Shown here one piece after another: positions 18,287 to 61,141 of a DNA stretch of 64,000 nucleotides. Each line of letters begins with the position of its first letter. Positions within the stretch are counted from its first letter, which is position 1. Source of the stretch: Lytechinus pictus (Eukaryota); the NCBI RefSeq assembly GCF_037042905.1, contig NC_087245.1:21516001-21580000 (forward strand). Direction: 5' to 3'. The position numbers were made by a program, and so were the translations under genes. Under the pieces are notes generated by a model. That model was not told where the DNA came from and did no database searches. It saw only the letters and a program-made list of their open reading frames with translations.

Positions 18287-19072
18287 CAGGGGCGTCGATC
18301 CATTTTTCAGATTGGGGGGGGGGGGGGGCAAAATCATGAATCAACGTTCCAAAGGCGCTCGATCATACAAAACGAACAAACACACCCACACACCCCCCAC
18401 CCTCACCAACAATGCGAGCGCGAAGCGCGAGCTGAATTTTTTTAGTATGACATGAAAACAGGAAAAATGTACCTGTGTAGGTTTGTTTGTAGTAACTCAT
18501 GAGGAGCATAAATACATGTATCTCACTAGAGAGCGAGCTAAAACTTCTTTATATTCTAACGTGAAAGCTTGATATTCTAAGCATTTTTGGTACCAATGAT
18601 TAAGATGGGTATAATAGATGCGAGCGCAAAGCGCCAGCTGAAAATTTTGATATTTCGATCTGGAAAAAAGACAGTTTAATGGACGCTTATAATAAAGAAC
18701 AAGATATATATCCAACAAAAAATTATATCAAATCGAAGCAGGAGTTCTTTTGAGGTATAGAACTGAAAACGGGACACTCTATTCACCTATTTAATCATGA
18801 AAAGTATGGGGTTTTGGTACAGAAATGATGCGAGCGCGAAGCTCGAGCTGAAAATTTTTATATTCCAATCTGAAAAGCAGACATTTTGAGTACGATTTTA
18901 AATCAAAATCGAGTTGGAATCTCAATCTCGCTTGCTGCTGGTTTCAGTGTAGCATTACAATCTTATTTTTTAGTTGCACATGCGGAGTTATTGGGAGGGG
19001 GCAAAACGATATGTTCCCCCCAAATATTTTCATTGGTGGGGTGATCGCCCCCCCCCCGGATCGACGCCTCTG
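18287..19072. mobile_element. hAT-like MITE nested in composite copy 1 (TSD TGTATACA)
   Basis: TIR CAGGGGCGTCGATCC / GGATCGACGCCTCTG; TSD at 18279-18286 and 19073-19080; same family as 24213-25025. Confidence 0.9.
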
Positions 19073-19228
19073 TGTATACAACTTCTCTCTTAAATCTAAC
19101 CCGACTGGCAATATCTTTTTTCTTAATGCATGATGATAACATGCAGATTCGGACCAATAATTTTATTAAGACTAGCACAAATGACAAACTGTGTGGCTTC
19201 TCGTGCGCCATCGGGCTTACCGTCATTC

Positions 19229-19261
19229 CATAGAGCTATTACTGTATGTAATAGCTGTATG
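19229..19261. mobile_element. 33-bp palindromic CATAGAG...CTGTATG remnant with 7-bp TSD GTCATTC
   Basis: CATAGAGCTATTAC-tgtat-GTAATAGCTGTATG flanked by direct GTCATTC (19222-19228, 19262-19268). Confidence 0.6.
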
Positions 19262-21119
19262 GTCATTCCTTAGACGATTTATCTTGCCACCCTTTTACTC
19301 CCGTTTATTGTCCACCCTTTTGAATTAATCATTGATGTATTAAAATCAATTTATTCACCACTGGTGGGATGGAACACGCTATCCACAAAAGTTGTTTTTC
19401 GTTGGGGTCCTTTTATGTCATGTGTTAAAAATATCATATACAAAAACATTTCACTCTTTTTCCTCTTGAACCTCCACCCATCTGTTTAATAGTCCTGAAA
19501 AAGAATGTTTTTATTTAATAACAATATACACAAATTGCGAAGGAAACAAACTGATGGCATAATCATCACTATAATCATCATGATCAAACTTCTCATTTTT
19601 TCATCATCATTATTATAATTTTTCTACCCTAAATTATTGGGGGGATGATAATACAGGGCATCCCCCCCACTTGAAATATTGGGGGGGATATATCCCCCCA
19701 TCCCCCCCGTGATCGACACCCATGAGGGGGAGTATCCCCCTCCCGCGCGAAGCGCGAAGCTTTCGATGTTTCATGAATTAAAATAAAAAGGAGCCGCCTC
19801 CCTTGTCTCTAGTACCTATATCAGCTCCAATTCATTTGAATATATTGTGATTTTGAACCTTGTTTTCAAAAGTGATTGTAAAACGAACAAAAAAGGGATA
19901 AAATGGAGGAAATTAAAATAATATTAACCCCGCGCGAAGCGCAAAAGCTAAAGCGTTTTATAATGTTTTTTTGCAAAGAAAATGGTCCCGAGAAAAGGTT
20001 ATTTTCTAAGTTATATTGAATACTTCCCTTGGAAAGATCAGATTTGATTACAAACAATTTAGCGACAGTGCATATCTTAACTCGCAAAACAGAGGAGAAG
20101 GATATATGCCGGGAGGAAGATATTCCTCCCCGCGCAGAGCAATGAAACTCTGAAATTTCAAAGGGCGGACGTTTCATCAAATGCAGATATCTCTAATACC
20201 CCCATCAGCTCTAATTCAAATTTCTAAGATTATTGAACTTCACTACAAGGAAATAGTGCGCAAAAAGTTGAAACTTCTGTGATTATTGAAATTATATAAA
20301 ACAGGATGATGTTATTATACATTGTATAATTTCTTTCACTTATCCCGATGCGCTTCACTTTGAATGATAAAGAAACGTAAGTGTCATTCAAAATTTCAAA
20401 CTGAGGGAGCAAAACGGGACAGGAGATGAATGTGCAGGGAAATGACATTAAGTTGAATAGAATTGGATAAAAAAATATTGTACTTTTTTTTATTTAATAC
20501 GACACGAATTTTATACCTTCCTCTTTTTAAATTAGGAACCTGTTTGCCCCCAAATTATGGTTGTGTAGTAATGAGCTGAAAAAGCGGGAGAAGTTGCCTA
20601 TATGGAGGTGACGGCAGAAATTGAGATTTTACCCGCCCGGAGCCAACCCGACCAGAAGTTGCGCGATCAATTAAAAAAAAGATAAATTCATATACTTCGG
20701 CCTAATCTTACTCTAATTCCATGCCCTAATGTATACATTTGAACTTTAACTGGCAAGAAACACATATAGCCGAGGTGAAAAAACAGGGTTAGTGAAAGGG
20801 TGAGGGAAACAAAGGAGAACTGCAACATTGTCAAATAACCGCGCGCAGCGCGGAAGCAAAATTCATATATATAAATTTAGAGCAAGAGTCGCGGAGTTTC
20901 TTTTTTGAGAAAAAATAAAGAATAAAAAGAAAAACCCACAAAGCTATACCTTTCTTCCCTTTCCTCCCTTCGCTTTTCCTTTTCTCCTCTCTTTTTTCCC
21001 TTTTTTTTTTTTTTTTTTTGGGGGGGGGACGTTTTTTTTTTTGGGGGGGGGGGGCGACCGCCCCCACCGCCCCCCCTGGTTAATGTGGCGAATGAGCATA
21101 GCGAGCGAGCAAATTTTGG

Positions 21120-24212: not shown

Positions 24213-24839
24213 CAGAGGCGTCGATCCTGGGGGGGGGGGGGGGGCAGGGGGGGGGGGCGATCGCCCCACCAATGAAAATATTGGGGGGGCAAACATATCA
24301 TTTTGCCCCCCCCCAATAATTCCGGATATGCATTAAAAAAAAACAAGATTGTAATGTTCAGCAAGCGAGATTGAGATACACAACTCGTTCTTTATTTAAA
24401 ATCGTGCTCAAAATGTCCGCTTTTCAGATTGGAATATAAAAATTTTCAGCTCGCGCTTCGCGCTCGCATCATTTCTGTAGCAAAAACCCATACTTTTCAT
24501 GATTAAATTGGTGAATGTAAATGTCCCATTTTCAGTTCTAAGCCTCAAAAGAACTGCTTCAATTTGCAATCATCTTTTCTTGGATATATAGCTTGTTCTT
24601 TATCAAAAACGTCCAGTAAACTGTCATTTTTTCAGATCGAAATATCAAATTTTTTAGCTCGCGCTTCGCGCTCGCATCTATTCTCTTTTAGATACAAATC
24701 TTAATCATTGGTACCAAAAATGCTTAGAATATCAAGTTTTCAGCTCAGAATATAAAGAAATTTGAGCTCACTCTCGGCACTCGTACTATCTGTGTAGTGA
24801 GATACGTGTCTGTGTCTCATGAGTCATACATATATATAG

Positions 24840-24889
<50 letters not shown>

Positions 24890-24896
24890 ATATATG

Positions 24897-24951
<55 letters not shown>

Positions 24952-25025
24952 TTTTGTACGATCGAGCGCCTTTGGAACGTTAATGATTTCGCCCCCCCAA
25001 TCTGAAAAATGGATCGACGCCCCTG
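24213..25025. mobile_element. hAT-like MITE, stand-alone inverted copy of the 18287-19072 family (TSD CTCATGGT), containing a (TA)n/(TG)n microsatellite
   Basis: TIR CAGAGGCGTCGATCC / GGATCGACGCCCCTG; TSD at 24205-24212 and 25026-25033; body is the reverse complement of 18287-19072; microsatellite ~24830-24946. Confidence 0.9.
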
Positions 25026-25983: not shown

Positions 25984-28017
25984 TCAATCCGAAGATGAAC
26001 CTTTGGGTTTCTTGCGGAACACTTTGATGGTATCCTCATCAGAAACAACAACATGTCCTTCAGGTGATAGGCACACGTCGAATGGCTCCCTGAAAGCTGT
26101 AGCCACACACGCTACATACTGCCCCCGATCGGTGTACATGTGAACACCTTTCTCACTTCCACGTTCTTTGTGGACAACAAATATGTTGTTCTCGGCATCA
26201 CAGCAAACCCCGCTTGGCTTCAACTTTCCAGTTTCACCGTATGAATCGATAGCCAAAAGGAGTTTACCTTCCTTTGTCATGATTCTGATTTTTTGCTTCC
26301 TGGGACAGCTGACAACGATGCGATCTCGATGATCGGTTGCAATGTGACTGGGACCAACAACAGGGAGTGTCTTCAAAAGGGTGCCGTCGGCGTAATGGAA
26401 CGTGATGACGTTACGCTTACAGTCACCAACAAGGATTCGGTTCCGACGGTCTACGGTGACGCATGCTAGTTCGACGTCCAACATTTTTACTTCTTCGTCT
26501 TTGCTTGATGTCTCGAAACGAAGATAGAAGCGTCCCTGAGGGTCATATATGCGGACAAACTTTGATTTATCAACAGCAACGAATCGACCATCAGGAAGAC
26601 ATGCCACATCTTGAGGCATCGAAAGCTTCCCATCAGGTTTCTTGTCCGAGTTTAACAGGCATACGAATTTCCCATCTTTGTCTAGCACCTGCACGCGATC
26701 ATTTCCCCAGTCGGCGACAATAGTGTGCCCATCTAAAGATACCGAGACGCCTCTACACCAATCAAACTGCCCCTCTTTGGAACCTGGAGCCCCAATTGTA
26801 GATGCAAGCTCCCACACTGGTGTCGTGTCCTCACTGATTTCCTGCTCTGATTCAGTCGATTCACTCTTTAGTCCGTCCATTTCATCACTTTCATCTGCTG
26901 CATCTTCTCCTGTGATTTCGGCTATATCAATGATGCTCAGGTCCTCTGAAGGAAGCCTTGGTTGAAGCTTCTGTAAGTTCGCAAGCCTTGTTCGCACTGC
27001 ATGATCTAATGACAATAAATGATACTCGTCTCCAAAGTCAAGAACACTCTCTCCGAGCTCAAAAGCTGTTGCCAACTTTTCTAAGCCCATTTCAATTTTA
27101 TCGATGTGTTCTTCGATTTTATCATCGTTCTTTTTGACAACAGAATCTACATTTCCTATGTACCGTTCCTCACGAACCTCCAAGTCGTCTTTCTCATTCT
27201 TGATTGCCTCTCTGATCTCAGTACGAAGCTGTTCTGCGCTGCCCTTCAACTCATTTCGTGTCTTCTCAAGAATTTCCCACGCTCCACGGAACTTAGCTGC
27301 AGTCTGTTGCGTCTTGCGGATTGAAGCCTCCAGTTCTTGCTTCCTCGAAGCAGCAGCTTCCTCGATAGCAACACATCGGTGCTTCTCCCCTTTGTGGTAC
27401 AGAACAACGCAATCACTGCATGCCAACTGTGAACATTTCTCGCAGAATAAAGATATGGGCTCTTTGTGTTCGAGGCATAGTTTGTTGACTGTGTTTGTAT
27501 CGTCAAGATGAGGATCTTTCTCCTTCATCTTCTGCCATTCCTCCATAGTCACTACCGTGTGATCACGTAAGATCTTGACATTATTATGCGCCCTCTTGCA
27601 AGCCTTACACATAAACTCTCGACAGTCTTGGCATCGGCACGTCGCGACATTACCTTTCTCACAGGAAGTACATGTCTTTTCTGCAATACTTGTATCCGAT
27701 TCGGATTCCGTGCTCGACTCAACTTGGTCTCCCGTCAACATCGACTTCATTTTGGCAACCATCGTATTAATCGCCAAGTTGACCGCTGACGTTTTTACAA
27801 CCGTCCCGTCCTTACACAATTCACAAGAGAAATTCCCACCATTTTGCTTTTGCTTCTTCTCAATGCAGCTCCTGCAGTAGGTATGTAAACAAGACAGCAT
27901 CCGTGGGTCTTCGTATTCACGTTCACATATCGGGCAGGTGGTAAACTCTTCCATGAACTGTACACTGTGGATGTCCGTCTCAGGACTAGGATCGCCATCT
28001 TGTTGGTCAGTCGCCAT
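25984..28017 (-). CDS. TRIM-NHL E3 ubiquitin ligase (RING, two B-boxes, coiled coil, NHL repeats; TRIM2/3/71/56-like), 677 aa, single coding exon
   Basis: RING CPIC...C.H.YC..C...CELC; B-box1 CTSC...C.CQDC...C..C...H...H; B-box2 C..H...FCEKC...C..C...H...H; coiled coil; NHL repeats (GAPGSKEGQFDWCRGVSVS...VADWGNDRVQV). True start is probably M49 of the listed ORF (aaaATGG), preceded by the acceptor tttgtttacAG at 28033-28034; the first 48 codons of the ORF look intronic or UTR. Confidence 0.92.
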   Translation of the reverse strand: MATDQQDGDPSPETDIHSVQFMEEFTTCPICEREYEDPRMLSCLHTYCRSCIEKKQKQNGGNFSCELCKDGTVVKTSAVNLAINTMVAKMKSMLTGDQVESSTESESDTSIAEKTCTSCEKGNVATCRCQDCREFMCKACKRAHNNVKILRDHTVVTMEEWQKMKEKDPHLDDTNTVNKLCLEHKEPISLFCEKCSQLACSDCVVLYHKGEKHRCVAIEEAAASRKQELEASIRKTQQTAAKFRGAWEILEKTRNELKGSAEQLRTEIREAIKNEKDDLEVREERYIGNVDSVVKKNDDKIEEHIDKIEMGLEKLATAFELGESVLDFGDEYHLLSLDHAVRTRLANLQKLQPRLPSEDLSIIDIAEITGEDAADESDEMDGLKSESTESEQEISEDTTPVWELASTIGAPGSKEGQFDWCRGVSVSLDGHTIVADWGNDRVQVLDKDGKFVCLLNSDKKPDGKLSMPQDVACLPDGRFVAVDKSKFVRIYDPQGRFYLRFETSSKDEEVKMLDVELACVTVDRRNRILVGDCKRNVITFHYADGTLLKTLPVVGPSHIATDHRDRIVVSCPRKQKIRIMTKEGKLLLAIDSYGETGKLKPSGVCCDAENNIFVVHKERGSEKGVHMYTDRGQYVACVATAFREPFDVCLSPEGHVVVSDEDTIKVFRKKPKGSSSD

Positions 28018-28530
28018 TTTGGATAATGTAGCCTGTAAACAAAGAAATAGAAATAAAACATTGTTTAGTCTAGAGATATCAATTTCATTATCATTACCAA
28101 AAGCCAATATCAAATCTGATTGATAATCAATTTCGAGTTTCCATTGTCTCTTTGAAGCCATTCATTCTTTAGCCGGTTCTCCAAACCCTATACTTGAGAC
28201 GGAAATAGCGTCAAGAAACTTGCATGATGTGCTACGCCCCACCATATTGTTATTACCACAAACAATGTTCATGTATATCCTGTGTTCAATTGTTCTGTTT
28301 CAAATGAATTGACGTAAAACAAGAAATCAGAAGAAAAGAAACAGATAGTTTGGCCTGATAATGATTATCGATTCCCCTGCATGCTGACATATTCTACTTC
28401 GCATGCTCATCTGTCTCAGGCTCTCAGTCTATTTGGAAATTGATTTTTTGGGCGAAGGTGACCCACTCCTCCCTTAACATTTCAATACAACAATTAGTTT
28501 CCGGTGTACTGACAGAAAATAAAGAAATTC

Positions 28531-28566: not shown

Positions 28567-28633
28567 CCTTATATTCAAATGATAGATTCTTGTAAAACGG
28601 GAAGGGGTGGGGGCTGCGTGTGAATTAATAATA

Positions 28634-29664
28634 CACTCAGCAAAAAAAGTTCTTGGACACTTATAAAAGTTAAAATATTTCATATAGATATTTTATTAAA
28701 GGCAAATTATTGAATGTCAACATGACCAGACAATATTCCTCTTCCAGTATGACATGACATTTTCATGTGAACAGTCATGCATGGGTGGTTAAATGCTTTA
28801 AACAATAGCAATGTCAGTAAAAGAAAATTGCAAGAAATGGATCAGTCAGTGCATGGCTGGTTACAGACATTAAACAATAGCAATGTCAGTAAAAGAAAAT
28901 TGCAAGAAAACGATCAGTCATTCTTTCAGTTGTGAAAGTTTGTGTGGCATAAATATCCATTAAACGATAAAAGCAAACTTTAAGTCAAATACCACTCTTA
29001 AAGGGAAGAGAAAGTTATTCAGCCTTGGATGCATCACTATTCCACTGGAATTTTAACTCAAATTTAGTCGATGAAAAAAATGTCAAATTTCAGTATCTTG
29101 GCATAAGCAACAGAAAAGTATCCTTATCCTCCTATCTTCTGCAGGGGTGGTGGCCCTAGGTCGACCACTCCTAGGGCGGTCTCTAACTTCATCAGCGAAA
29201 TACTGCTTGTTCAAATTTGAAATCGTTGTTGGTGAAACTTGGAAATATCGAGCCACTTGTCTAAATGACTGCCCAGACTGTAACATTCCTATTGCTCTTG
29301 CAATGAAAGCTTCATCTTGAAAGTGAGTGTCCAAATGATCCATCTCATTATGCATCTCATGATGCATCCCTAAGCATTCAATTCAAATGATAACTACCTG
29401 TTGAAATTGTTGAATGTATGCCTACAGGATGGCCATGATCATTAGCATTTGAATGGTCAATTTCTTGCAATTTTCTTTTACTGACATTGCTATTGTTTAA
29501 AGCATTTAACCAACCATGCATGACTGTTCACATGAAAATGTCATGTCATACTTGAAGAGGAATATTGTCTGGTCATGTTGACATACAATAATTTGATTAT
29601 AATCAAATATCTATATGGAATATTTTAACTTTTATAAGTGTCCAAGAACTTTTTTTGCCGAGTG
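28634..29664 (-). mobile_element. Internally deleted Tc1-family transposon with ~200-bp TIRs and a transposase N-terminal HTH remnant
   Basis: TA-CACTCAGCAAAAAAAGTTCTTGGACACTT ... AAGTGTCCAAGAACTTTTTTTGCCGAGTG-TA; ORF 29083-29367 ARAIGMLQSGQSFRQVARYFQVSPTTIS...DRPRSGRPRATTPAEDRRI is a paired-like HTH plus the GRPR motif; no DDE domain. Confidence 0.92.
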
Positions 29665-30376
29665 TACATACAGTGCAAAGACGGACACGTATAGTGCATG
29701 GATATCTGAATATCTTACTCTTCAATTCGATATGACTGAGATGCATGGACAGATAACATTTTGACGGAAGGGTCTAAATGTGAAAAGAATGCAATGCAGA
29801 TCGATGGTAAAGAATGATTAAGTGTAAAAGCTGATAATGCATTGAATTTCATACTGTTTTCCCTTTTATTGAATGAAATATATCGCTGATTTTATAACAA
29901 AACCATAGTGGTCATCGAGTCATAATTCAGTGTTGTTGATGAAGCCAGAATTCATATCGAAAGAATTTCAGATATACCATTTGAAAGAAAAGTACATGTA
30001 GCCGTCGCATGTCATAATCGCTTGCACTGTACAACCTGATCGATCGGTCATATTACACCATAAGCATTAAGCATATATATGGGAGCAATCTACAAGAAGA
30101 ATCTTAACATTCGTTTTGGAATTGTATGTAGGCCTATACACACATGAATGTTGTACGTCCATATTGTTTAATGGGCTTCCACAATAACAGAATTAATCGC
30201 CAGGCATATTGCCACTTGTGTTTTAAAAGCCCCCTAGGTATAGTTCCCCCATGGAGCTAAATAAATATTGACAAAAGGAACAGAACAACCCTTACTATTG
30301 ATATCACGCGGAACGAAAACTGAGCTTCGTTGGAGTTTGTATTCATTTTAGTATTCGCCTGATCCGGCTCGTTTAC

Positions 30377-34174: not shown

Positions 34175-34417
34175 GGGGGCGTCATGGTCAAGTGGTTATG
34201 ACTCTCGTTTTTCAATGAGAGGGGCCTGGGTTCGAATCTCAGTCACGGCGTGTTTTCCTTCAAGAAATTTATCCACATTGTGCTGCACTCAACCCAGGTG
34301 GTGTTAATGGGTACCCGGCAGGATTTAGTCCTTGAATGCTCCAAGCGCCTGTATACCAGCTGGAGCTACAGCCGGGTATAGTGCGCCATTGAATATAATC
34401 GGCGCCTCATATATACA
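34175..34417 (+). mobile_element. tRNA-derived SINE
   Basis: Head with A-box TGGTCAAGTGG and B-box GGTTCGAATC, followed by a SINE-like core (CAACCCAGGTG...AATGGGTACC) instead of a tRNA 3' acceptor strand; AT-rich tail interrupted by a MITE. Confidence 0.75.
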
Positions 34418-38793: not shown

Positions 38794-38797
38794 TTAA

Positions 38798-39383
38798 AGG
38801 AGAATGAAACTCTTAGAGCAGGTTAGCTTTTGTGAAAGCAGAACAATCAAAGAATAAGATTCAACAAAAGTTTGAGTAAAATAGGACTAGCAATAGAAGA
38901 GTTATGAGCATTTGAATGTCGGAGATCACTAATGCTATGGAGATCCTCCCATTGGCAATGCGACCAAGATCTATGATGTCACAGATGAACAACTCTCCCC
39001 TTTTGGACACTGAAAATATACCCCAAAACATCTCTTTTTGCTCATTCTAATCATATGACAAACGATTCATCAATGATATAATGTTGTGAAACCTCTGTAC
39101 TTGTCCTCTCATAAAGAGAACAGCTCACCTTGTGATAGACTCTATAAAAGTGAGAATATAAGTGAAATAAGTACTAAAGTAATGAGGGAGTTGTACGTGT
39201 GTGACATCACAGATCTTGGTTGCATTGCCAATGGGAGGATCTACATGGCATTAGTGATCTCAATATTCAAATGCTCATAACTTTCTTATTAATCATTCAA
39301 TCTTCATCAAACTTTCAACAATATGTTTCTTTGATTTTTCTCTTTTATATGGATTCAGCTGGTTTCAAGGGTTTCATTCTCCT
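38798..39383. mobile_element. Kolobok-like MITE with TTAA TSD
   Basis: TTAA-AGGAGAATGAAAC ... GTTTCATTCTCCT-TTAA; ~80-bp internal inverted pair 38900-38982 / 39200-39282. Confidence 0.85.
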
Positions 39384-39599
39384 TTAAACTTGAAAGTTTA
39401 GCAATACTTTGTGAAAACAGTTATGCACAGGCGACGTGAATATAATACTCATGATGTCATGTCCCCACTTTCCCATTTCTTATGTTATTACATTAAATAA
39501 AAATTATTTCATATTTTCATACATATGTGTATGACATGTCTTCCTTATATTAAAGATAAGTTGCAGCAATGAATATCCAATGCATTCAATCAGTGAAAC

Positions 39600-40022
39600 C
39601 ATGGGTGTCGATCAGTATTCTTGGTTGGGGGGGATGATGACACAAAAGTTCTTGTGGATGGGGATCTTTCAACATTACCCCCACTAAAATCACAAGTTAG
39701 GACATTTGGGAGTGATTGATATGCATGGTGTTCTTGGAAATTCCTTCATTGTTGTAGTGTACTGTACTTATATAATTTTTTTTTAAATTCAATTTGTGTT
39801 ACAAGTAAGCCTATTCTAAACTCATACGAAAGAAAAAATGACAAAAATCATCTGGAACATGTACATAGTGATCTGTTGATTGAGCATGATGTATACACAG
39901 GGGCATCGATCCATTTTTCAGATGGGGGGGGGGGCAAAATCATGAATCAACGTTCCAAAGACGCTCGATCATATAAAACGAACAAACTCACCCACACACC
40001 CCTACACCCCCACACATAGGCC

Positions 40023-40054
<32 letters not shown>

Positions 40055-41219
40055 GAATCATGAGAAAGAGACACATATCTCAACCTCACCAACAATGCGA
40101 GCGCGAAGCGCGAGCTGAAATTTTTTAGTATGACATGAAAACAGGAAAAATGTACCTGTTTAGGTTTGCTTGTAGTAACTCATGAGGAGCATAGATACAT
40201 GTATCTCACTAGAGAGCGAGCTAAAATTTCTTTATATTCTGACGTGAAAGCTTGATATTCTAAGCACTTTTGGTACCAATGATTAAGATGGGTATCTAGA
40301 AGAACAATAGATGCGAGCGCAAAGCGTCAGCTGAAAATTTTAATATTTCGATCTGGACAAAAAGACAATTTAATGGACGCTTTTAATAAAGAACAAGATA
40401 TATATCCAACAAAATATTATTGCAAATCGAAGCGGGAGTTCTTTTGAGGTATAGAACTGAAAACGGGACATTCTATTCACCTATTTAATCATGAAAAGTA
40501 TGGGGTTTTGGTACAAAAATGATGCGAGCGCGAAGCGCGAGCTGAAAAATTTTATATTCCGATCTGAAAAGCAGACATTTTGGGCACGATTTTAGATCAA
40601 AATCGAGTTGGTATCTTAATCTCGCTTGCTGGTTTCAGTGTAGCATTACAATCTTATTTTATTTTTAGTTGCACATGCGGAATTATTGGGAGGGGGGCAA
40701 AACGATATGTTCCCCCCAAATATTTTCATTGGTGGGGCTATTACCCGGTACTCTAATAGCTATATTGTCATTCCTTAGACGATTTATCTTGCCACCCTTT
40801 TACTCCCGTTTGTTTTTCCACCCTTTTGAATTAATTGATTTATTAAAATTAATTCATTCACCACTGGTGGGATGGAACACCCTAACAACAAAAGTTGTTT
40901 TTCGTTGGGGTCCTTTTATGTCATGTGTTAAAAAATATCATATACATAAACATTTCAAACTTTTTCATCTTGAACTTCCACCCATCTGTTTAATAGTCCT
41001 GAAAAAGAATGTTTTCATTTAATAACAATATACACAAATTGCGACAAACTGATTGATGGCATACTATAATCATCATGATCAAACTTTTAATTTTTTCATC
41101 ATCATTATTATAATTTTTCTACCCTAAATTATTGGGGGGATGATAATACAGGCCATCCCCCCCACTTGAAATATTGGGGGGGATATATCCCCCCCATCCC
41201 CCCGTGATCGACACCCATG
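39600..41219. mobile_element. Composite non-autonomous DNA transposon, copy 2 (TSD AGTGAAAC)
   Basis: Same TIRs as 17986-19724; TSD at 39592-39599 and 41220-41227; carries the same nested MITE from 39898 with its right end deleted. Confidence 0.9.
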
Positions 41220-41534
41220 AGTGAAACGTTTTTTTAATAATTATTCTTGGAGGACAATAAAAATTTGAACAAACATAATTAATTTGCTCATTGAATACTC
41301 ATAAAGGCAGGTTTGGAGTTGTTTCACGGAAATAATACAAATCTCTAAAATGTCATGACTTTTTCGTCCTTGTCCGAAACTATCAAACTTTCAACTGTTT
41401 AGTTTGACTGATAGTAAAATAATAACCTTAATTTAATTGTTATTTCCGTGGCGATGGCCTGTCGTACACCTTTTATGATTTTCAGCGCGAGATGGCGTTA
41501 ACATTTTCTTTCTTTTTTGCGCATGCTCTGTAAC

Positions 41535-41595: not shown

Positions 41596-41700
41596 GTGAA
41601 ATTCGTGTGACGGACTTTCGATCGAAGAACCAGGCAAAGGACAGAGGGCCGAAATAATCAATATTATTCATCTTTCACCAAAGTTTTGGCCTCTTCCACA

Positions 41701-41814
41701 ATGACGGAGGGAGAAACAAATCAAGACTCTTTTGCCATTTATATGGCAGAAGGTGATGTTCTGTTTAAGCAAGGAGAGTACAAAAAAGCATTGCATAGTT
41801 ACTCGACGGCATTG
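41701..41814 (+). CDS. ODAD4: ODAD4 exon 1a (MTEGETNQDSFAIYMAEGDVLFKQGEYKKALHSYSTAL)
   Basis: acaATG start; donor GTGAGT at 41815, phase 0. Confidence 0.88.
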
Positions 41815-44800
41815 GTGAGTTGAGCTGCTTTCCGTGAGTGACCGAGTTTAATGTGGACCGGGTGGGCCGTGGGAGAGAGTCAGACTCAGAGTCAGAGAGA
41901 GGAAAAAAAAACAATGAAAAAAAAAACAGAATGAAAGAAAGGGTGATACAAATACAAACTTGAGTCTTCACATAAGCTTTGGAGAAGGGTAGAGACTAGT
42001 GTAGTGAGTCCTTTTGTTGTCTGGTGGAAAAATATGGTGGAAAATAGCGAATTTTGATGACAAACGGCTACAGATCAGGATCGGTCATGTTCTTCTTCGA
42101 TTGCCGTCAGTGCAGCTACAGTAATAAAAGTTAGATCTACAGCAACTGGGCGTTGTGGCGTGCGCCTGTAATCCAAGCTGTGGGGAAGTTACAAATTGAC
42201 GCAGGGGTTCGAGCCCTGGTCACGTCTTTCGGATGGCGACGTTAAAGGTCGGTCCCAGACGTAAATAATCATATCTGATTGATACACGTCTGACAAAACT
42301 CAAGTACACACACAAATACACACAGCTGAGCGTACGAACGTGCCAGCCAATCCGCTGGCACTTCTTCTGTACACTCGGCTGTAACTTATTGTACATGTAG
42401 CTGACAGCGATCGAACAAGAACCTGGCTGACCCGCCCCGATCTGTTTGTCATCAAAATTCGCTATTTTCAAGCATATTTTTCAGAAGCTGATTCCATTAT
42501 AATTTGATATGAATTCATCTTTATCATTTCTTCCTTTTTTCCCCGTCAAAAAGCAAAATTTAGGAATAGATATTCTAGATCTGATCGAGGAGGGTGCAAG
42601 AACGCACTCTTTCTCCAGACCATAGACGCTGTAGCTGTAGTTAAGCGACGGTTGTTTGCTCCACCATTTACAAGCCCAATGGCCGTCATCCGTCTGTGTA
42701 GGAGGACAGAAAAAAATCAGAAAATGTTGAAAAACTCCTCTGAAACAGCGGATTTATCAGTCTAATCCCTGACAGAAATAGACCTGTTTATTGGTCTATC
42801 CAGGCCTGGGTCTATCTAACGTTAGAAATAGAATCTAGATCAAACTTTATAGAGTTAGATCTAGATCTATAGCAGTATAGGTCTAGATATTGAGGAGTTT
42901 TCAGAGGTAGTATATAGTCTAAGAGTGCAGTGATTGTGAGCAGCAGGAAAAAACAACCATCGAACTCATCCTGGGAAGTCGATGGATCTACCATCGAAGA
43001 GAAAGTCAGTCACCCTCATCTTGGTATCCTCAAGTCTGGAATACGATTGGATCCAACTGGCGACATTATTGGCACCGGTATTCGTACTTTCTTTGCTCTC
43101 ACTGGTACTGGAGCATATACCGGAGGTCTGGTTCCTACTCTTGTATCCCAGCTCTGGAAAACTTTCTGCATCCCTAGAATGCTGCACGGGTCCTCTATCC
43201 ACAAGTTCACTAAATCTATGCTTGTAAAGTTACACCGGGCTCAATCCCATCTGTTTAAGCAAGTTCTAGGGATCCCAAAGACTGCTGCCGACGAGATTGT
43301 CTACCTCCTCACTGACCTCCTTCCAGTCTCATCACAAATAGATCTCAGGAAACTGCTGCTTCTAGGTCAACTCGTCAACCTCGATCACAGCCGCTTTGAG
43401 TTTAGAACATTCCTGGAAGCCCTCAACTTAGGCTCTCCTACAATACGGCTCTTGCAGGAGATAACAAAGAAGTACAATCTTCCTGATCTTCACAGCATTC
43501 ATTCGAATCCTCCCGTATACTCATCTTGGAAGAGATTGGTCAATTACAGAGTGAACCTGCTGACCAAACACAACACATGTCAAGGAATCCTTTCCAAGCC
43601 ATCTCTTAAGTAATGGCAAGATTGTATACCTCCTGCTGCTAAACTCCTGTACCTGAAAAGTGTACCCTCTCCTGTCTTACGAAGAGCATTTCATTTGTGG
43701 TGAGAGCTCAACTCCTCAGAGCCACCTTACTTAACACAGTGTCGTCTTTTCACGCTGAAGAAATCAACCAGTCGCACTTGCCCTCTATGCAAATCTGCCG
43801 ACGAGACTGTGGAACATTTTACTGGGCAGTGTCCCAACCTAGACCATCTCCGTCAAGTGTTTATTGGCAAAAAATAGAATCTCCAAATTGTTTTTATTGT
43901 TCAGCTTTCCCAGAGACACTGGTCCATTTGTTTTGTGAATGTCCAAAAATTACCCCGCTTTGGCAAAACCTATTATCTTTAATCAGTACAAAAATAGGAG
44001 GTCACCTAAATTGGACAACTTTTGAGAAGATGTTTGGTGTTTCTAATGATTCAGTTCACATGAAATGTATAAATTGTTTAGTACTTTATCTGAAATTTTA
44101 TATATACCGTTGCAGATTTAAAAAACTGGAACCAAATTTCGACGCCTTTATGATTTTCATCAACTACAAAAAGAAACTTGATTACAAAATAGCAGAGAAA
44201 AGAAATAAATTGGGTATTCACTTTAGAAAATGGTCTTTTTCATTTGAAACTTCGAGGCCTCAGACTCAGTCCTGATTCTTTGGTATTTCTGTACCAGACA
44301 TGTTCTTAATCAGATAGTGTGCTTCTACTATTTTCACAATTTTCTCCTAATTGTGTGTGTTTTTATGTACAGTCAGTTTATTACTCATTAGTGCATAGGC
44401 TTTTTGTTGTTGTTATAAGTATGTATGCTGGCAATTCTGTAAACGTGTTGTGTTTGTATATTAACTTGTATATATGTTAATAAATATATAAAGAAAAAAA
44501 GAAAAAAAAGGTGTTTATTGGCAAAGTCAAGGACTGCCTTATGGACTTCCCAACATGTGTCAATCTATATGTCAATGCCAACCCACAGGACTTTACTCAG
44601 GCTACCCTTATACCATTTTACTCTTGTTTGCCCAATGAAGTACACAATAGTCTACTTTTATCATCCCTCTTTTTCCTCCACAAAATTCCATTCTGATATG
44701 GTTCAAACCTCCTAGCCAGAATGACAGTGTACATGGAACAAATCTGTTTTCCTTGGACCCTAGGAATCTCCAAATAGTGGAGGGATCAGTTAAGAGAGAG

Positions 44801-47800
44801 AGAGAGTATAGAAGTCTAGACTATGGCTTTGCTAAAATAAAGCAGCACAGTGATCCGGTAAACGGGCAAGGCTTTGATTTGCTACGACTAAGCTAAGTCT
44901 AGCCAACGTCAGTAGACCTAAGTAGATCTACTTAAGAGTCTAGATCCAAGTATTTTTTTTAACCAAACCACATCTTAAACTGGGTGATTACCCTACATCT
45001 CTCAATACAGATTACCAATACAAGTTCCCTTTTCAAAGTCCCCCCACAGAAGTTAAAATTTTCATGTTTAGAATTGTTATCTTGTCTATTTTGAGAGAAA
45101 AAAAAATTAGGATGATACAATGCAGGGACCCATTTGGTTTGACCTCATTCGAAAACCTCCCACAGGCTCTAAGTGTTTTCATGGATGGATGACAGTTAGC
45201 TTGAACTAGAGGCTTTAGTCTTATGACAAAATATTGCTTACTCAAGCTGACATAAGAAGATGCCTGACTGCATTATGAGTAATTAGCTTGCATTGGCAAA
45301 ATTTTTCAACTCTGCTGAAGCTTCCAGGCATCATGTAAATGTACAATGACCCTGACTTCTTAAAAGTGAACCTGTTCAGTTTGTGTTGAGTTTATCAAAT
45401 TATTTAATATACAGTTTCCACCAACATTTCATAAACATTAAAAGCAAATGGTTGAGAGAAGCCATTCATGTCTTTGATGAAAACCATAAACATTGTGTCA
45501 TCTGTACATTACGCAGTTCTTGTTCATTCCTGAACCTGGAGTGTTGGCCCAAATTTATTCTGACTTGAGTACTAATGAACCAACCATTGTGGAGGTGTGG
45601 GGGGGGGGGGGGGGGCGGTGATTGTTTCAGCAATTTCCATTTTGATTTGTCTTCCAAAAAAGTAGATTACAAGCAAAATGCTAATTAAAGAATGCCTAAT
45701 GAACAAGATATTCATAAAGGGAATGAAAGTGAAAATTTATGTTAAAGACTATATTGCACATTAAAATACTCTAATACATGTATACCGAGATATTTAACTG
45801 TGATAGTAGAAATTCAGCAGAGATAAATTTTATTTGAGAATTTTAAACACATAGGACCACGCTACCCTTCCCTTCTCAATAAATGGATTCATCCACTCTT
45901 TATTGATCACTTTGCAAATGGAAATCAATATACTTTCTAGCTGGTACATTCCCTGATCAAGTCTATAGAGATACCCCTTTCCTTTATCCATTGTTATCCA
46001 TTGTTGAGACCTACTCAATGATGCATTCATGAATATGCATGAGGTCAAGAAGACATGAATATGCATTGCTGTTTGTTGCTATGACTTATCTCAAAGGGGC
46101 TCTTCATGCTGTACATGTAGTGTAATGGCTGCCTGCTGAAACACAAAGACTTGCACATCATCTTGGATATCTGTCACTGTACTGAAGTTGGATATTGGTT
46201 GGATATTTGAAGGAGCGAATTTAGATCCATCATGGATGAATATGTGGATCCCATGCAAGAGCGGGAGGAGCAGTTGAAGCTCCTGCAGTCGTATATAGGA
46301 GAAGCGGAGGATCACATGAGAAAGAGAGATTACAGACGTGCAATGGAGGGCTATAATTTAGTATGTGCATGTTGGATGTGTGTGTGTGTGTGTGCACATA
46401 CATGTAGCAAAATGTCAATTGAATTAAAAATAGTGCTTGGGTTTTTAAGAAATCATATTTATCCTTATCCATGTCCAATTCAAATTTTCTATTAATGAAT
46501 TTCACCTACCATTGACTTGTTTAAGAAAGGCAGATCTTGCTCATGCTGATTTTTTTAAAATGAAAAACTTGGTTGTAATTGTTTTGCAGGCAACATCGTG
46601 AGATTCTCCCATTGATCAAAATATAGGGAGATAATCATTATTTATGCCTGGCATTTATAAAGTTGTATTTTTAAAGGCACACTATACTTTAGCTTCAAAT
46701 TATTCTTCCAGCGCTTGTTGTATTCAGGGAATTAATCCTGCTGGGTGCCCATTCATGTCACCTTTGTTTAGTGAAGTAAAAATTTTCTAAATTTGATATA
46801 CTCTGTATGCAATGGTCCAGAGCAAAAAGTTTTGTCAACACAAACACATCTGGCAAAAATACATGTAGATATAAAGGTAAGTTTTTGTGACTTTGTTTTA
46901 TAGGCCTACATGCATTGTAATGCACCTAGTTTGAAATGGTTAATTTTCATTTCTTTTCTCTTGTTATTGTTTTGTAGGCTTTAGAAATAGAACCCACAGA
47001 CAAGAACTGCTTGGTTGCCAGATCTAAGTGCTACCTTCAACTCGGTGATTCCAAACAAGCATTAAAAGATGCTGAGGCAGCACTCTCAGATGATAAAAAC
47101 TACATTAAGGTTAGTCATAAAGCCCTCCAACAGGAAAAAAAGGAATAAACAATAAACAAATTTGATTAAAAAACAATTATTATAGGTGATAAGCAAAAAA
47201 AAAATCAACATATAAAAAGAGGTGATCTAAAGGATAACAGAATGATATGAACTTAATGAAATATTTTTCTTATAAATGGCCTTTGAGTAATATAGAATTG
47301 ACATTAAATTGTGTCTGCCAATATGATTTTGAGTGGAAAGTTGACCGTTCCTCCTAAATAGATATTTTCATTCAACTCTGTTTTCCTTTGAGCGGTATCT
47401 GTGCTGATTATAACATTTATCACCTTAATGGACTTGCTGTTTTTTCCTGTTTCTTCAATGATGAAAGTGTATAAAGCATATTGATTTCAATTCATTGTGG
47501 TATTAACTGCACATACAGCCAGCTGTAGAAAATGGTCAAGAAGAAATATTCATTAACTTATACATGATTATATTCATTTTCAGTGCTGTATCTTTTACAA
47601 CAAGTCAAGAATCAGAAGTAAAGTTTAAGAAATTTTAACAAATCATTTTAGCAAAGCCATATGCTTTTGTGTTTATTGGATAGGCTTATTGATGTTTAAT
47701 GAAAGATTTATTTCACTTTTGTTGATATTTTGCATACACCTTTCTGGTATGTATTTTTTCTTTAACAGGGTTTATTTCAGAAGGCTGAGGCGCTTTATCA

Positions 47801-50800
47801 GATGGGAGACTTTGAGATGGCCCTTGTCTTTTATCACCGCGGCAATAAATTTAGACCAGAGCTCCAAGAATTCCGTCTTGGCATACAGAAAGCACAAGAA
47901 GCAATTGAAAACTCAATAGGAAGTATGTGAACTAGTTTACTGCGCTTGATAGAATACATGCATTATACTTCTAGTTATGTCACTTAGCTGATTTATTTTG
48001 AGAGATATGATTAAACCCCATTCGCATTCTGTCAAGCAATAAATGAAATAAAGCGACCTTCATCATTACATTACAAACACCTGCCCAGAACCAAACATAC
48101 ATGTAAAACTTGTTAGATCTACATAAAACATTTGAAGTAAAAATATTAACATACATGTATGTTGGTACATGTATACTCGTAGCATGCACTCTGTAAACAA
48201 TGAATTTTTGCCCATTTGGGCTTTATCAAGTGTTTAATGAAATATCAAAATGCGTCATATAACATGTCTAGTAAGTAGCGTACACTCTACTGAAGCCCTT
48301 TTATTTATTTATATTATCTCTTCTTCTGAAACCAGGTCCTTCCAAAGTAAAACTAGAAAACAAAGGGGATTTGTCTTTTTTCAATAAACAAGATGAGGTG
48401 AGTTCTATTGATAAGGAAGCTTTCTTTAGAGGTATTTACAATGTTTTTTGCTATCAAGACTAGGATTAAAATTTTGTTTAGAGACAGTTGAATGAGTAGT
48501 TTCACTTTGAAAATAAAATTCATATTGAGAATCAAGCCATCTGGCTTCTGTATATTACAAAGAGTTGCAATATATTTAATTCAAACTTGAATTTTGATTG
48601 ATAGAAATTACTTAAGTAGTAAAATCTAAAATACAAATTCCTATCTCTTCACTACACAATTTTAGATTGCTTTGAATCAATCGCAATTTGAGTTTGATTG
48701 GATCTATCACAACTCTTTTTGTAAATGGGATGTGGGGTCTGTTTTTTATATTGATGAAAAACATTGTAGTCATCACTGTTAAAACTTAAATATTTTGTGC
48801 TGGTCTCCTTTCTACTTGGTAATGTGCTTAGTTATCCTGAAGATTGAATTTATGATATTGAAGGTATTCGTGTAGAGGTTATTAGTAAGGTGACACGACG
48901 CACGCTCATGCAGCATTTGCTTCTGTCTCAATATCTCAGAGGGCATAGGGTTAGAGTTTAGGGTTGGAATATAATTTTTTGTTCTGAATAATGCAAAGAT
49001 AAGGATCAGGGGGCCGTTTCATAAAGCTGTTCGTAAGTTAAGAGCGACTTTAAGAACGACTGGTGATCCTTTCTTACGCGCAAAACCATCGCTAATGAAT
49101 ATACCATTTATCAAAAGAAAGGATCACCAGTAGTTCTTAAAGTCGCTCTTAACTTACGAACAGCTTTATGAAACACCCACCGGGGCTTATTTAGTTTTGG
49201 AGTTTAGGTTTAATTTTCGGCTTAACTAACTTGCATATTTTCCATCAGAGCGATTGTTACCCATTCTCCATGTATGTTCTGTCTGTAACCTTGTAGGTAA
49301 AGTCGAAAAAACCAGCAAGGATGGGATACAGTAAACCTATGGCAAAACAACAAGAAAACAAGAAGAAGAGACCGGTCAAGCCTGACCAGACTCCAGCTGA
49401 AAAGAAGACGGCCAAGCAACTTCTAGGAGAGCTCTATGCTGATAAGGAATACCTTGATAAACTTTTAAGAGACGAAGGTAATCATATATTATGCAAATGT
49501 GCTGCCTGACTAAGTGAGTCAAGGTCCATTTCTCCATTATTTTTTTGTTTCTTGCTATTTGTATAAAAAAATGTAAAACAGACATAAGTTCCTCGTATCA
49601 GATGTGTGTCTCCAGTATTGTTCATCTCCCCAGATCTCTTTCTGTCTCCTCTCCTACATGTACATCCCATTATCCAATTGTGCTCTAATTGTATCAATAC
49701 TTTCATGTAACTTGTTACTATGTAGACCTGACGAGAGCAGATACAGACAGCGGTAATAGAATCTACGACCTTGTCAATGAGGGTCTTCAGTACCTAGACA
49801 CCAGGACAGAGTTCTGGAGGCAACAGAAACCTATGTATGCCAGGAAGAGAGAAAAGGAAGAGGCCAAAGGAGCAAGAGAGAAAAATAAACAACAACCAGC
49901 TGATCCTGCCAAATATGTTCTTAAGAACCTTGAAGAAATTGATGCAGGTAATGAAGACATTGGTGCATGCACATTAGTTCATTGTACTCTATGATCTCAC
50001 TTTGAGTTGAGACATTGCCCAGCTATTACACAAAGTAGTTTTGGCCGAGTGTCCATAAGATGGATACAACCTCAAAGAACTTTAGGCATTTGGGTATGTG
50101 AGATTTTGACGTACTATCCTTTTCGAGGCCAGCCGGATGTAGCTATCTTTCCAAAGTGAAGCTGAGGAAAGATAGTGAGTACATCCAGCTTGCCAAGCGA
50201 TGATTGATGGGGAAACTTCCCTTTATTAACATGATTGACTTATGACCAATCCTATAGCACGATTCTTAGTATGCGGAATATGAAATAACTTATCAAAATT
50301 CATCCCCAAATTGTCCTCCTCAGATCAGAAGGATAGTATAATGAACAAATGAAGATTCATAATTTGTTTTATATTTTTGCATCCTGTTATTTGATGAATA
50401 AATATGAAAGATCGATCCTGTGATCTCTTTTGCGGCTCTGCATAAGGCGTTGCAGTAGGCATGTTTTGAGGTCATTCATCTTTCTGCCCTGGTTTTTTTT
50501 TTCTGGCAACAACTATAAATAGTTAGACTTCAAACATGGATCATCTATATGCATACAGGTGTGACAATTAGATTTTGGAGTCAAAGTCAAAGAGATCATT
50601 ATTCACATTAAAGTACCTTGTGATAATGAAAGAACTGTTTAACTTCATCAAGGTATCAGCTTCAATTTTTACCTGTATGTTTATGTGAGTGAACAAGGTT
50701 GTCATAAGTTATTGATCCAATAGATTTAAAACTTTCCATATTCTGAAATCAGTCCCAAGTATGCAAGTACATGTATACGGTATGTAGCTGTAGATAGAAT

Positions 50801-59800: not shown

Positions 59801-61141
59801 TGCATTTGATCACAGAATTTAGGACAAGGATGCTTGAACTGATGATTTCATTTGGCAAGACCTTCATCCAGTGGCGGACCGTGACTCAGAGGAGGCAAAG
59901 CATTGGAGGGGCACTGTATTGTTTGTGAACAATGCTGTTCCCCTCCAATGCTTTGTCTCCTCCGGGTCACTGTCCGCCACTGACTTTATCCAGTGATTCC
60001 TTCCAATTTTGAGAGCAAAAAAGATTTAAATTATGTACATGCTGTACCCCTCCTACTACACATAACAGTATAGATTTAAGGTCAGGACCCTGTTTCACGA
60101 TACCCATTATCATCAAGTTGCTTTCACTGGACATTATAAGGTGCTATTTTCTTTTATTGTTGTGTCATCGGCTGAGAACACATTTGGCACACACTGTAGA
60201 AATTTAGTTTCTTTATTTGTGTGTGTGGTGAAACAGGGTACTAGTTATCTGGATCTTGCTGTTTTATTAATCATTCAGCTGGTATAATTTCAAGATACAT
60301 GTCATTTTTGAGATGGGAAGGCAGTAACACACAATCCAACTTCCATGTCGTTGAACACCAAGGTCAAGTCCTTGGACCCCCCCTAAAAAAAAAAAAATCA
60401 AGTTTATGTATGGAGTAAATTTATGACTACGTCAAAATGTTATTCACCACAATAAAGTGAGATATGGCTCTTTGAGCTCTTGAATGTGTCAGTTGGTTCA
60501 AGGCATAGTTTTTCTTCATACTTCTGAATATTATGTTGACTCGAGATGAAATGACTCAAGGATTTCCTGTTGATCATATCTAGACGAGTTCTGAATTCTT
60601 GAGCAGTTGATTTGGGCATCGTCCTGATGTCTGTGTACTAGAACTTACTAGATTCCTTTGTCATTGTCATGTCATCATCATTCTTATCCTCAACATAATC
60701 ATCGTCAACATCACCACCATCATCAACACTGTCATCATGATTGATGCCACCATCATTAACATTAATACCATCATCACTATCAATAACATCAACACCATCA
60801 TCATCATTATCGTTGCTGTCATCATCAATACCATCATTTTCGACATGCTCATTATCATCACCATTATCATCATCATCATCACCACCAACACCACCACCAC
60901 CACCCCCTCCACCCCCACTACCACAACCATCACCACCATCATAAACACTAACCATCACCTCACCACCACAAACCTTGTTATTTACATGACAGGGCTATTG
61001 CTGGAGTATGTGAGTTTTAATATGACATTTGGCAGTGTAAATTCTTCAGTAATTTTTGTTATCTCTTCTCTTATGTCTTTTACAGATGAAAAGCCAGCAG
61101 AAGAAAAGACGGATGAGGCAGAAGAGCAAAAGGAAGAATAA
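41701..61141 (+). CDS. ODAD4: Outer dynein arm docking complex subunit 4 / tetratricopeptide repeat protein 25 (about 608 aa)
   Basis: join(41701-41814,46978-47109,47769-47922,48336-48397,49297-49477,49726-49947,51224-51431,52269-52552,52929-53165,53943-54119,61086-61141); all GT-AG introns with matching phases. Motifs match TTC25 as I recall it: YMAEG, DKNCLVARSKCYL, QKAEALYQMGDFEMALVFYHRG, KLENKGDLSF, QLLGELYADKEYL, FWRQQKPMYAR, SRALDNLGRVYARIG, TWLYHEIGRC, WQLNASVLIAQ. Confidence 0.92.
42027..42482. mobile_element. Long palindromic (fold-back) element interrupted by a SINE
   Basis: Arms GAAAATAGCGAATTTTGATGACAAAC / GTTTGTCATCAAAATTCGCTATTTTC; centre GTGCCAGC-caatcc-GCTGGCAC. Confidence 0.75.
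42145..42321 (+). mobile_element. SINE with a 7SL RNA (Alu-domain)-like head and a DeuSINE-like core
   Basis: CTGGGCGTTGTGGCGTGCGCCTGTAATCCAAGCT resembles the 7SL/Alu 5' end; B-box GGTTCGAGCCC; GTCTTTCGGATGGCGACGTTAAA resembles the Deu domain; CA-rich tail; ACAGC on both flanks. Confidence 0.7.
42930..44806 (+). mobile_element. Truncated non-LTR retrotransposon (RTEX-like ORF2 C-terminus with CCHC knuckle), split by an L1/Tx1 insertion
   Basis: ORF 42930-43613 (HLGI...GL.P....LWKTFCIPRMLHG...KQVLGIP) with a stop and frameshift; CPLCKSADETVEHFTGQC at ~43778-43831; frame resumes at 44511-44696; (GA)n at ~44793-44806. Clade assignment tentative. Confidence 0.7.
43872..44510 (+). mobile_element. 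5'-truncated L1/Tx1-type LINE with poly(A) tail and 15-bp TSD
   Basis: ESPNCFYCSAFPETLVHLFCECPK...LKFYIYRCR...KW; AATAAA plus A-rich tail 44479-44509; TSD GTGTTTATTGGCAAA at 43857-43871 and 44511-44525. Confidence 0.9.
46232..46360 (+). CDS. ODAD4: ODAD4 putative alternative first coding exon 1b (MDEYVDPMQEREEQLKLLQSYIGEAEDHMRKRDYRRAMEGYNL)
   Basis: atcATGG start, coding-like composition, phase-0 donor GTATGT at 46361, in frame with exon 2; aligns with the TPR helices of exon 1a. Confidence 0.7.
46978..47109 (+). CDS. ODAD4: ODAD4 exon 2
   Basis: ttttgtAG|GCT...AAG|GTTAGT; ALEIEPTDKNCLVARSKCYLQLGDSKQALKDAEAALSDDKNYIK. Confidence 0.92.
47769..47922 (+). CDS. ODAD4: ODAD4 exon 3
   Basis: taacAG|GGT...A|GTATGT; GLFQKAEALYQMGDFEMALVFYHRG...ENSIG. 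Confidence 0.92.
48336..48397 (+). CDS. ODAD4: ODAD4 exon 4
   Basis: accAG|GT...GAG|GTGAGT; SPSKVKLENKGDLSFFNKQDE. Confidence 0.9.
49010..49180. mobile_element. Palindromic Harbinger-like MITE (degraded relative at ~51505-51630)
   Basis: ~55-bp near-perfect arms GTTTCATAAAGCTGTTCGTAAGTTAAGAGCGACTTTAAGAAC... / ...GTTCTTAAAGTCGCTCTTAACTTACGAACAGCTTTATGAAAC; G-rich/C-rich termini. Confidence 0.8.
49297..49477 (+). CDS. ODAD4: ODAD4 exon 5
   Basis: ttgtAG|GTA...G|GTAATC; ...KTAKQLLGELYADKEYLDKLLRDE. Confidence 0.9.
49726..49947 (+). CDS. ODAD4: ODAD4 exon 6
   Basis: tgtAG|AC...G|GTAATG; ...YLDTRTEFWRQQKPMYARKRE...LKNLEEIDA. Confidence 0.9.
51224..51431 (+). CDS. ODAD4: ODAD4 exon 7
   Basis: ttgcAG|CT...CA|GTAAGT; ...ANLHSCLGNAYLDLG...HQKDLDLS. 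Confidence 0.9.
52269..52552 (+). CDS. ODAD4: ODAD4 exon 8
   Basis: tttcAG|C...G|GTAAGA; SRALDNLGRVYARIG...WQLNASVLIAQSE. Confidence 0.9.
52929..53165 (+). CDS. ODAD4: ODAD4 exon 9
   Basis: gaacAG|TC...G|GTACGT; KLGDLQEAIDSFERSLDMAK... Confidence 0.88.
53943..54119 (+). CDS. ODAD4: ODAD4 acidic symmetric (phase 1-1) exon 10, possible cassette
   Basis: ctaacaacacAG|AA...G|GTGAAA; EQQQSRPDDDEEFEQQ...EQRQGHD; 177 nt; weak polypyrimidine tract. Confidence 0.65.
55354..56109. mobile_element. piggyBac-like MITE with TTAA TSD
   Basis: TTAA-CCTAAATAGACTGGG ... CCCAGTCTTTTTAGGG-TTAA; subterminal hairpins GGGGGCTGATTCAGCCCCC at both ends. Confidence 0.85.
58564..58688 (+). CDS. ODAD4: ODAD4 putative alternative terminal exon (Ser/Lys/Arg-rich)
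   Basis: ccctacAG|GA in phase 1 gives GSRSSSRSSKSSKSSKSSKRGSGFFGLRRSSSSGSEKDEKK*; GC-richer coding-like island within an AT-rich intron. Confidence 0.6.
59869..59982. mobile_element. 114-bp hairpin hAT-like MITE
   Basis: CAGTGGCGGACCGTGAC... / ...GTCACTGTCCGCCACTG, palindromic over nearly its whole length; flanks CCTTCATC / ACTTTATC (6/8 match). Confidence 0.8.
60660..60970. repeat. Degenerate (CAT/CAC)n trinucleotide repeat
   Basis: Direct inspection; produces spurious D/G-, M/V- and I/T-rich ORFs in several frames. Confidence 0.9.
61086..61141 (+). CDS. ODAD4: ODAD4 terminal coding exon (DEKPAEEKTDEAEEQKEE*)
   Basis: Strong polypyrimidine tract ...tcttttacAG|AT, phase 1; TAA at 61139-61141. 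Confidence 0.75.

Follow-up and report, generated by a model that had tools for sequence, protein, structure and literature searches.

The window, i.e., the whole 64-kb stretch of DNA analysed here, comes from a sea urchin, in agreement with the earlier note on this DNA, which had assigned it to an invertebrate genome, and it carries the gene ODAD4/TTC25 with its TPR domains. The first coding exon of this gene (41701-41817, forward strand) matches the Lytechinus pictus protein at 38 of 39 positions, and over 94 residues one exon has an identity of 100% to ODAD4/TTC25 of L. pictus, of 97% to that of Strongylocentrotus purpuratus, and of 91% to that of Diadema antillarum. When the gene was compared with the L. 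pictus protein by tblastn, seven of the 10 pieces showed 97-100% identity and one short piece 96%; the remaining two run into the intron and reach 83-84%. These identities make the source animal a Lytechinus. The first coding exon exists in two alternative versions that are alike in their TPR sequence, the one named above and another at 46232-46359, one of which fits the L. pictus isoform and the other the S. purpuratus isoform X1. Intron 1, after the 41701-41817 exon, holds on the sense strand an insert of 177 nt, which is described below. The stretch 41600-42600, comprising exon 1 and the insert, shares 0.15-0.27 of its words with 20 of the 24 listed sequencing runs (8 studies, 2 organisms), and among the runs listed there is no RNA run sharing its words.

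Elsewhere the window contains a tRNA-Ser(CGA) gene (17337-17418, forward strand), a 725-aa open reading frame in one piece on the reverse strand (25984-28161) with RING, B-box and NHL domains (TRIM-NHL-like) and 76% identity to a Diadema protein, and a 0.8-1.7-kb repeat in three copies of 85-94% identity (17986-19726, 24248-25025, and 39600-41221). Two adjoining LINE-like fragments occupy 42918-44275 on the forward strand; the second has an A-rich end and weakly matches zf-RVT (E 0.00037).

The insert and the element that it interrupts are composed of the following parts:

42027-42482, no strand assigned: older foldback (MITE-like) element split by the insert, with its centre hairpin at 42340-42361 and arms about 80% alike
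42139-42143, forward strand: left copy of a likely target-site duplication of 5 bp, with one extra A between repeat and element
42145-42189, forward strand: 7SL-like head, corresponding to the Alu 5' domain (helices 2, 3, and 4, and the U-turn), the likeness ending near model position 45
42149-42158, forward strand: Pol III A box within the head, 9/10 by eye to the consensus given in PMC12265939
42190-42200, forward strand: linker, present upstream of the B box in a tRNA-headed metagenome element (L002) too and in a decayed relative at 4482
42198-42221, forward strand: predicted hairpin like a tRNA T arm, with the B box, aligning with both tRNA-headed metagenome elements (L001, L002) and with a tRNA SINE of the window (34220-34249)
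42223-42261, forward strand: conserved core, by eye like the 5' start of the Deu/Nin domain (Inv/alpha-type) as drawn in Fig. S4 of PMC7245038
42256-42292, forward strand: 3' stem-loop from fold prediction, a candidate recognition site of a LINE reverse transcriptase
42293-42321, forward strand: A/CA-rich simple tail, with CA/ACCA tails at the same place in L001 and L002
42322-42326, forward strand: right copy of the likely 5-bp target-site duplication

The insert (42145-42321) is a single, non-tandem unit below the 1-kb size limit of SINEBase (PMC3531059). Upstream of it, 96 letters of the foldback DNA align with the opposite arm, 78 of them identically (18 mismatches, 3 gaps), and on its 3' side 23 of 26 nt agree with the next stretch of the opposite arm; both alignments were made without joining the flanks, and none of 2000 shuffles reached either flank score. 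The body of the insert has no counterpart in the opposite arm, 165 of 500 shuffles scoring as well, and the motif of the left 5-bp repeat occurs once at the matching place of that arm. Taken alone, the 5-bp repeat is weak evidence, as the CA tail runs on into three of its five letters. Arms that continue on both sides, a flanking repeat and a body without counterpart are nevertheless together good evidence that 42145-42321 was inserted into the foldback arm with a short duplication, and a 5-bp flanking repeat, a CA tail and a split foldback arm are all hallmarks of insertion. The earlier note had given the exact coordinates of this element, which it put at about 180 nt, and had rightly described its flanking 5-bp repeat, its CA-rich tail and the palindrome that it interrupts; the break is less clean than claimed there, the 14 nt to the left of the 5-bp repeat facing about 3 nt in the other arm. 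Other foldback elements of the window lie at 7400-8441, 16190-16780, 28632-29666, 38794-39387, 49016-49174, and 59869-59982.

The Rfam metazoan SRP model, proposed in the earlier note as a check of the head, matched it (RF00017 Metazoa_SRP, 35.8 bits, E 2.9e-7 in 1.5 kb, E 1.2e-5 for the whole window and all families) at half of the gathering score of 70, and the alignment covers 42145-42230. The T-arm hairpin, which is aligned there as helix 5, contributes part of the score. Matches to mir-1268 and AdoCbl in the 1.5-kb scan were rejected as far below threshold. The 5' end of the head is 7SL position 1, and by eye 35 of the first 45 model positions equal the Metazoa_SRP consensus, the likeness dropping after position 45; 28 of the first 30 nt are identical, again by eye, to the hagfish element SINE1-1_EBu. 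The 3' end of 7SL, which is kept by Alu, B1, Urop, and SINE1-1_EBu, is absent from 42145-42321. The 7SL gene itself was rejected, given that the likeness stops near nt 45, and the element had indeed been judged too short and too early in its divergence to be that gene. Human Alu contamination was likewise rejected because the head lies in a sea-urchin intron on a body common to marine elements. The proposal of an Alu-domain-like 5' end thus holds for about 45 nt and fails from the B box onward, a part common to the tRNA-headed sisters. For heads, SINEBase (PMC3531059) sets a minimum of 60% identity to tRNA, 5S or 7SL across 60 nt or more, a rule outside which hybrid heads fall; here the 7SL likeness is 78% over 45 nt and is followed by a tRNA-type stretch of about 30 nt. 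Judged by its sequence, and with a score below the gathering level, the head is classed as 7SL-derived and the insert as SINE1 in the broad sense of head origin described in PMC7245038.

In the Rfam alignment all three pairs of helix 2 are kept, two of them with both partners changed from the consensus, as are all three of helix 4; helix 3 has lost one of its consensus pairs. The U-turn triad occupies the positions that it has in 7SL (numbering after PMC12265939). The folding check suggested for the Alu domain therefore gave a divided answer: pairs and triad are kept in the alignment, but the free-energy fold of the head (z 0.46, with 136 of 200 shuffles as good) prefers a rival pairing of the U-turn bases with the linker. 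In that minimum-energy model the SRP9/14 site would be hidden. Free-energy folding often misses the native Alu fold, which relies on protein and on tertiary pairs.

Downstream of the head, the linker is identical to that of L002 at 10 of 11 positions, yet 59 of 2000 shuffles score as well; by its sequence it likely comes from the tRNA-SINE parent. The Pol III B box reported in the earlier note is found at 42206-42216 and agrees with the tRNA-type consensus of PMC12265939 at 11/11 positions, and the 64 kb hold three such exact B boxes in all, counting both strands. It shares 9/11 positions with the B box of L001 and, by eye, 6/11 with that of human 7SL as cited in PMC7245038. The A and B boxes are 47 nt apart, and the element contains no T4, the first one lying at 42465.

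The core motif (42224-42246) has no other match in the window at up to three mismatches and none in 100 shuffles, and the core as a whole differs from L001 and L002 at one position. Its resemblance to the Deu domain, which has ~130-140 nt, is confined to the initial ~35-50 nt, with ~26/32 to AmnSINE1 by eye in Fig. S4 of PMC7245038. A DeuSINE was rejected because the remaining ~90 nt of the domain are absent, and the label 'DeuSINE-like' given to the core in the earlier note was an overstatement, the match being limited to the Inv/alpha-type part. A MetaSINE was rejected too, as no likeness to the 66-bp Meta domain consensus was seen by eye. Descriptions of Inv/alpha make it the 5' portion of Nin, itself contained in Deu, and Inv is listed for echinoderms (PMC4758252, PMC5804259, and PMC3747384); the core was compared with these descriptions, which its position and extent fit. 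In the 3' stem-loop all 13 consensus pairs are invariant in the three sequences compared (3/3), and covariation accordingly gives it no support. The proposed search for a partner LINE of the 3' end returned no match in the window, and the tail motifs are absent from the searched supplements of PMC4758252 and PMC4824008 (in both cases with file 1 outside the search), PMC5786205, and PMC5804259.

A scan of marine metagenome contigs with the core motif yielded two loci, and the window itself contains a third relative of the body:

520-705 in L001: tRNA-headed element with the core and tail of the insert and a different head
170-372 in L002: tRNA-headed element with a longer head, a 9-nt duplication in the 3' stem-loop, and the core and tail of the insert
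4266-4482 in the window, reverse strand: decayed relative of the body (linker and core, then tail) in two collinear pieces with ~70 nt between them

Core and tail are identical to those of the insert at 87/95 positions in L001 and at 79/82 plus one 9-nt gap in L002. The heads of both (2/2) differ from that of the insert in having A and B boxes of tRNA type, and they have no Rfam match at E up to 1, SRP included, and no tRNA call by ARAGORN. The flanks of the two loci are unrelated to the window and to each other, with 5-mers only and no clear target-site duplication around them. The B-box hairpin and linker of the insert differ from those of both loci, which likely represent an undescribed or unidentified parent SINE group. 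In the nhmmer search the two pieces of the decayed relative scored E 0.026 and 9e-5, against E 0.13 for the best reversed-window control, and no SRP match at E up to 10 marks a 7SL head on it. The 64-kb window contains no second full copy of the insert and no second 7SL-headed copy, and neither of the two metagenome matches has such a head (0/2). The body patterns had no match in viral contigs and none in genome contigs; three viral loci matching a 16-mer were rejected as chance, with no extension beyond 16-17 letters. A tRNA-headed SINE of the window at 34176-34370 (forward strand) has an Rfam tRNA match of 33 bits. Its body is presumably of the CORE/SURF1 type.

The hairpin, core and tail common to the insert and the tRNA-headed elements place the junction at ~42189/42190, with everything 3' of it coming from a tRNA-headed SINE lineage. 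Since the same core and tail stand behind tRNA-type heads in L001 and L002, a tRNA SINE likely had its front part exchanged for a 7SL 5' domain, its B box being kept. We put a probability of about 0.7 on the reading that the insert has a 7SL-like Alu 5' domain in front of B box, core and tail from a tRNA-type SINE and is a copy of a Lytechinus SINE family predicted to use Pol III, SRP9/14 and a LINE. Within this reading, a multi-copy family with a 7SL-derived head is very probable, and the predicted binding of SRP9/14 as an aid to mobility is slightly favoured. The fusion could have arisen during reverse transcription of the tRNA-headed parent, if near nt 45 the enzyme jumped to 7SL RNA as a new template; a template switch of this kind, with 5S rRNA, has been proposed for the origin of HaSE3 from HaSE1 (PMC3272025). 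The A box from 7SL would then form, together with the B box of tRNA type, a working internal promoter, from which Pol III transcripts would read through to the T4 at 42465. The head of such RNA is predicted to fold as a tau-junction, to bind SRP9/14 and thereby to dock the RNA on ribosomes, where a stringent LINE could recognise the 3' stem-loop and CA tail and copy the RNA by target-primed reverse transcription. By analogy with other urchin SINEs, which pair with CR1 or L2 elements in a table of PMC3747384, the partner LINE may be of the CR1/L2 class.

The main rival also assumes a real SINE family, but takes the 7SL-derived head as a mere donor of the A box and 5' end, SRP9/14 having no role and mobility being due to the 3' stem-loop as in the parent. 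It fits the lowest-energy fold, in which the U-turn bases pair with the linker, as well as the spread of the parent body with plain tRNA-type heads in L001 and L002, and the A box, which any promoter fusion must keep, is indeed located in the first 15 nt. However, an A box needs only ~15 nt, yet the whole 45-nt domain with its three helices was kept, which is the size of the minimal binding unit, and we regard this rival as possible though rather unlikely. It is improbable that the insert is a one-off chimeric retrocopy, made by a single switch from a tRNA SINE to 7SL RNA and never amplified, like the U6/L1 chimeras. The single 7SL-headed copy seen in the 64-kb window and the two metagenome loci agrees with such an event, but both promoter boxes are intact, the 5' end begins at 7SL position 1, and after a recent one-time event the body should agree with its parent throughout, whereas the B-box hairpin and linker are unlike those of both sister loci, which suggests a lineage with its own history.

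The remaining explanations concern the origin of the head. By eye, 42196-42220 is patchily like the matching part of hagfish SINE1-1_EBu, and the B-box stretch might thus also be 7SL (positions ~64-86, after a short deletion), in which case the head would be 7SL throughout and only the core and tail borrowed. This is quite improbable in view of the B box, which agrees far better with the tRNA-type consensus (11/11) and with L001 (9/11) than by eye with human 7SL (6/11), and of the register from B box into core, which is that of L001, L002, and the tRNA SINE at 34220-34249. A Rfam score under the gathering threshold would also be compatible with a diverged tRNA-type head resembling 7SL by chance, and the failure of ARAGORN and Rfam to call the sister heads as tRNA indicates that heads in this group drift far. 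An E value of 1.2e-5 over the whole window and all families, the 28/30 identity to the proven 7SL-derived head of SINE1-1_EBu and the compensated helix 2 make chance a highly improbable source of the likeness. We prefer the fusion of a 7SL 5' domain to the body of a tRNA SINE, and we infer that the insert works like Alu-type SINEs.

SINEs derived from 7SL are called extremely rare, and all are stated to have arisen by much the same central deletion (PMC13023118, February 2026); the groups named as having them are only supraprimates, hagfish, and shrew moles (PMC13023118, 2026; PMC10886601, 2024). Among the papers listed in the literature searches there is no 7SL-derived SINE from an invertebrate, which is in keeping with the earlier suggestion of a possibly undescribed family; an unpublished entry in Repbase or Dfam may exist. 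The insert probably belongs, as one copy, to an Alu-like SINE family of independent origin in the sea urchin, and it would add to the known cases both an invertebrate lineage and a different route, in which the 5' domain alone was kept and the B box borrowed. We see even odds for the fuller proposal that Alu-like SINEs arose independently once more, with this as the first case outside vertebrates, and that exactly the minimal 46-nt SRP9/14-binding domain, kept by evolution and combined with a tRNA B box, serves the element to reach a stringent non-L1 LINE on the ribosome. If SRP9/14 docking helps even with a LINE that recognises a stem-loop, the ribosome-docking model would be general and no quirk of L1 and poly(A). 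Lytechinus is kept in laboratories, and the tRNA-headed sister with the same body and tail could serve as a natural control of whether the Alu domain alone raises SINE mobility.

As all known 7SL-derived SINEs keep both ends of 7SL and the insert does not, it is not of the Alu/B1/Urop/Ebu1-1 type; that type, which also keeps the 7SL B box, was rejected because the likeness ends near position 45, and the poly(A) tail for L1 of Alu, B1, and Urop was rejected because the insert ends in a stem-loop and CA tail. It is like Alu, B1, Tu, and Urop, as described in PMC13023118, in starting with an Alu 5' domain that contains the A box and U-turn and in having an internal Pol III promoter, and differs from their central deletion of ~183 nt that keeps both 7SL ends, their poly(A), and their use of L1. 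The hybrid of 7SL and tRNA parts in the head of the insert may have a precedent in the tree-shrew Tu unit. That unit is reportedly of 'dual 7SL and tRNA origin'.

The hagfish SINE1-1_EBu (Ebu1-1; Kojima 2020, PMC7245038) resembles the insert in carrying a 7SL head that was put on an older tRNA-SINE by chimera formation, in its simple-repeat tail instead of poly(A), and in its independence of Alu. It retains positions 1-96 and the 3' end of 7SL together with its own B box, whereas the insert keeps 45 nt followed by a B box of tRNA type, and it has an RTE-derived tail and target-site duplications of ~17 bp without a Deu-like core, in contrast to the core with an Inv/Deu start, the 5-bp repeat and the invertebrate host of the insert (PMC7245038). 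The hagfish 7SL DeuSINE named in the earlier note conflates two groups, since SINE1-1_EBu lacks the Deu domain and EbuSINE1/2 have it behind tRNA heads. With DeuSINE, Nin and Inv (alpha) elements the insert has in common the recognisable first ~35-50 nt of the Deu domain (Fig. S4 of PMC7245038), but the known members of these superfamilies, among which the sea-urchin SINE2-3_SP is counted, have tRNA or 5S heads instead of a 7SL-like one. HaSE3 and HaSE1 of Helicoverpa (PMC3272025; supplement of PMC5786205) show the same kind of head swap on a common body, with a similar core motif; HaSE3 differs in its 5S rRNA head, RTE tail, and insect host (PMC3272025).

The closest counterpart of the head was made in the laboratory. 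Moldovan, Yin, and Moran (PMC11760393) describe a 46-nt Alu 5' domain (SA46/AY46) that binds SRP9/14 like the 86-nt SA86 and gives ~86% of Alu retrotransposition, and the head of the insert is likewise a 5' domain of ~46 nt, its likeness to 7SL stopping where the minimal domain stops. The piece kept in the sea urchin is thus the minimal Alu domain of the cell assays (PMC11760393) and bears on why Alu succeeds. SA46/AY46 were engineered and CMV-driven with poly(A) and human L1, sufficient for one round of retrotransposition, and their RNA is described as unable to re-amplify without a B box, unlike the insert, which has a B box of its own (PMC11760393). The minimal-domain result of PMC11760393 accordingly belongs to human L1 and poly(A), and the insert presents the corresponding domain in front of a stem-loop and CA tail.
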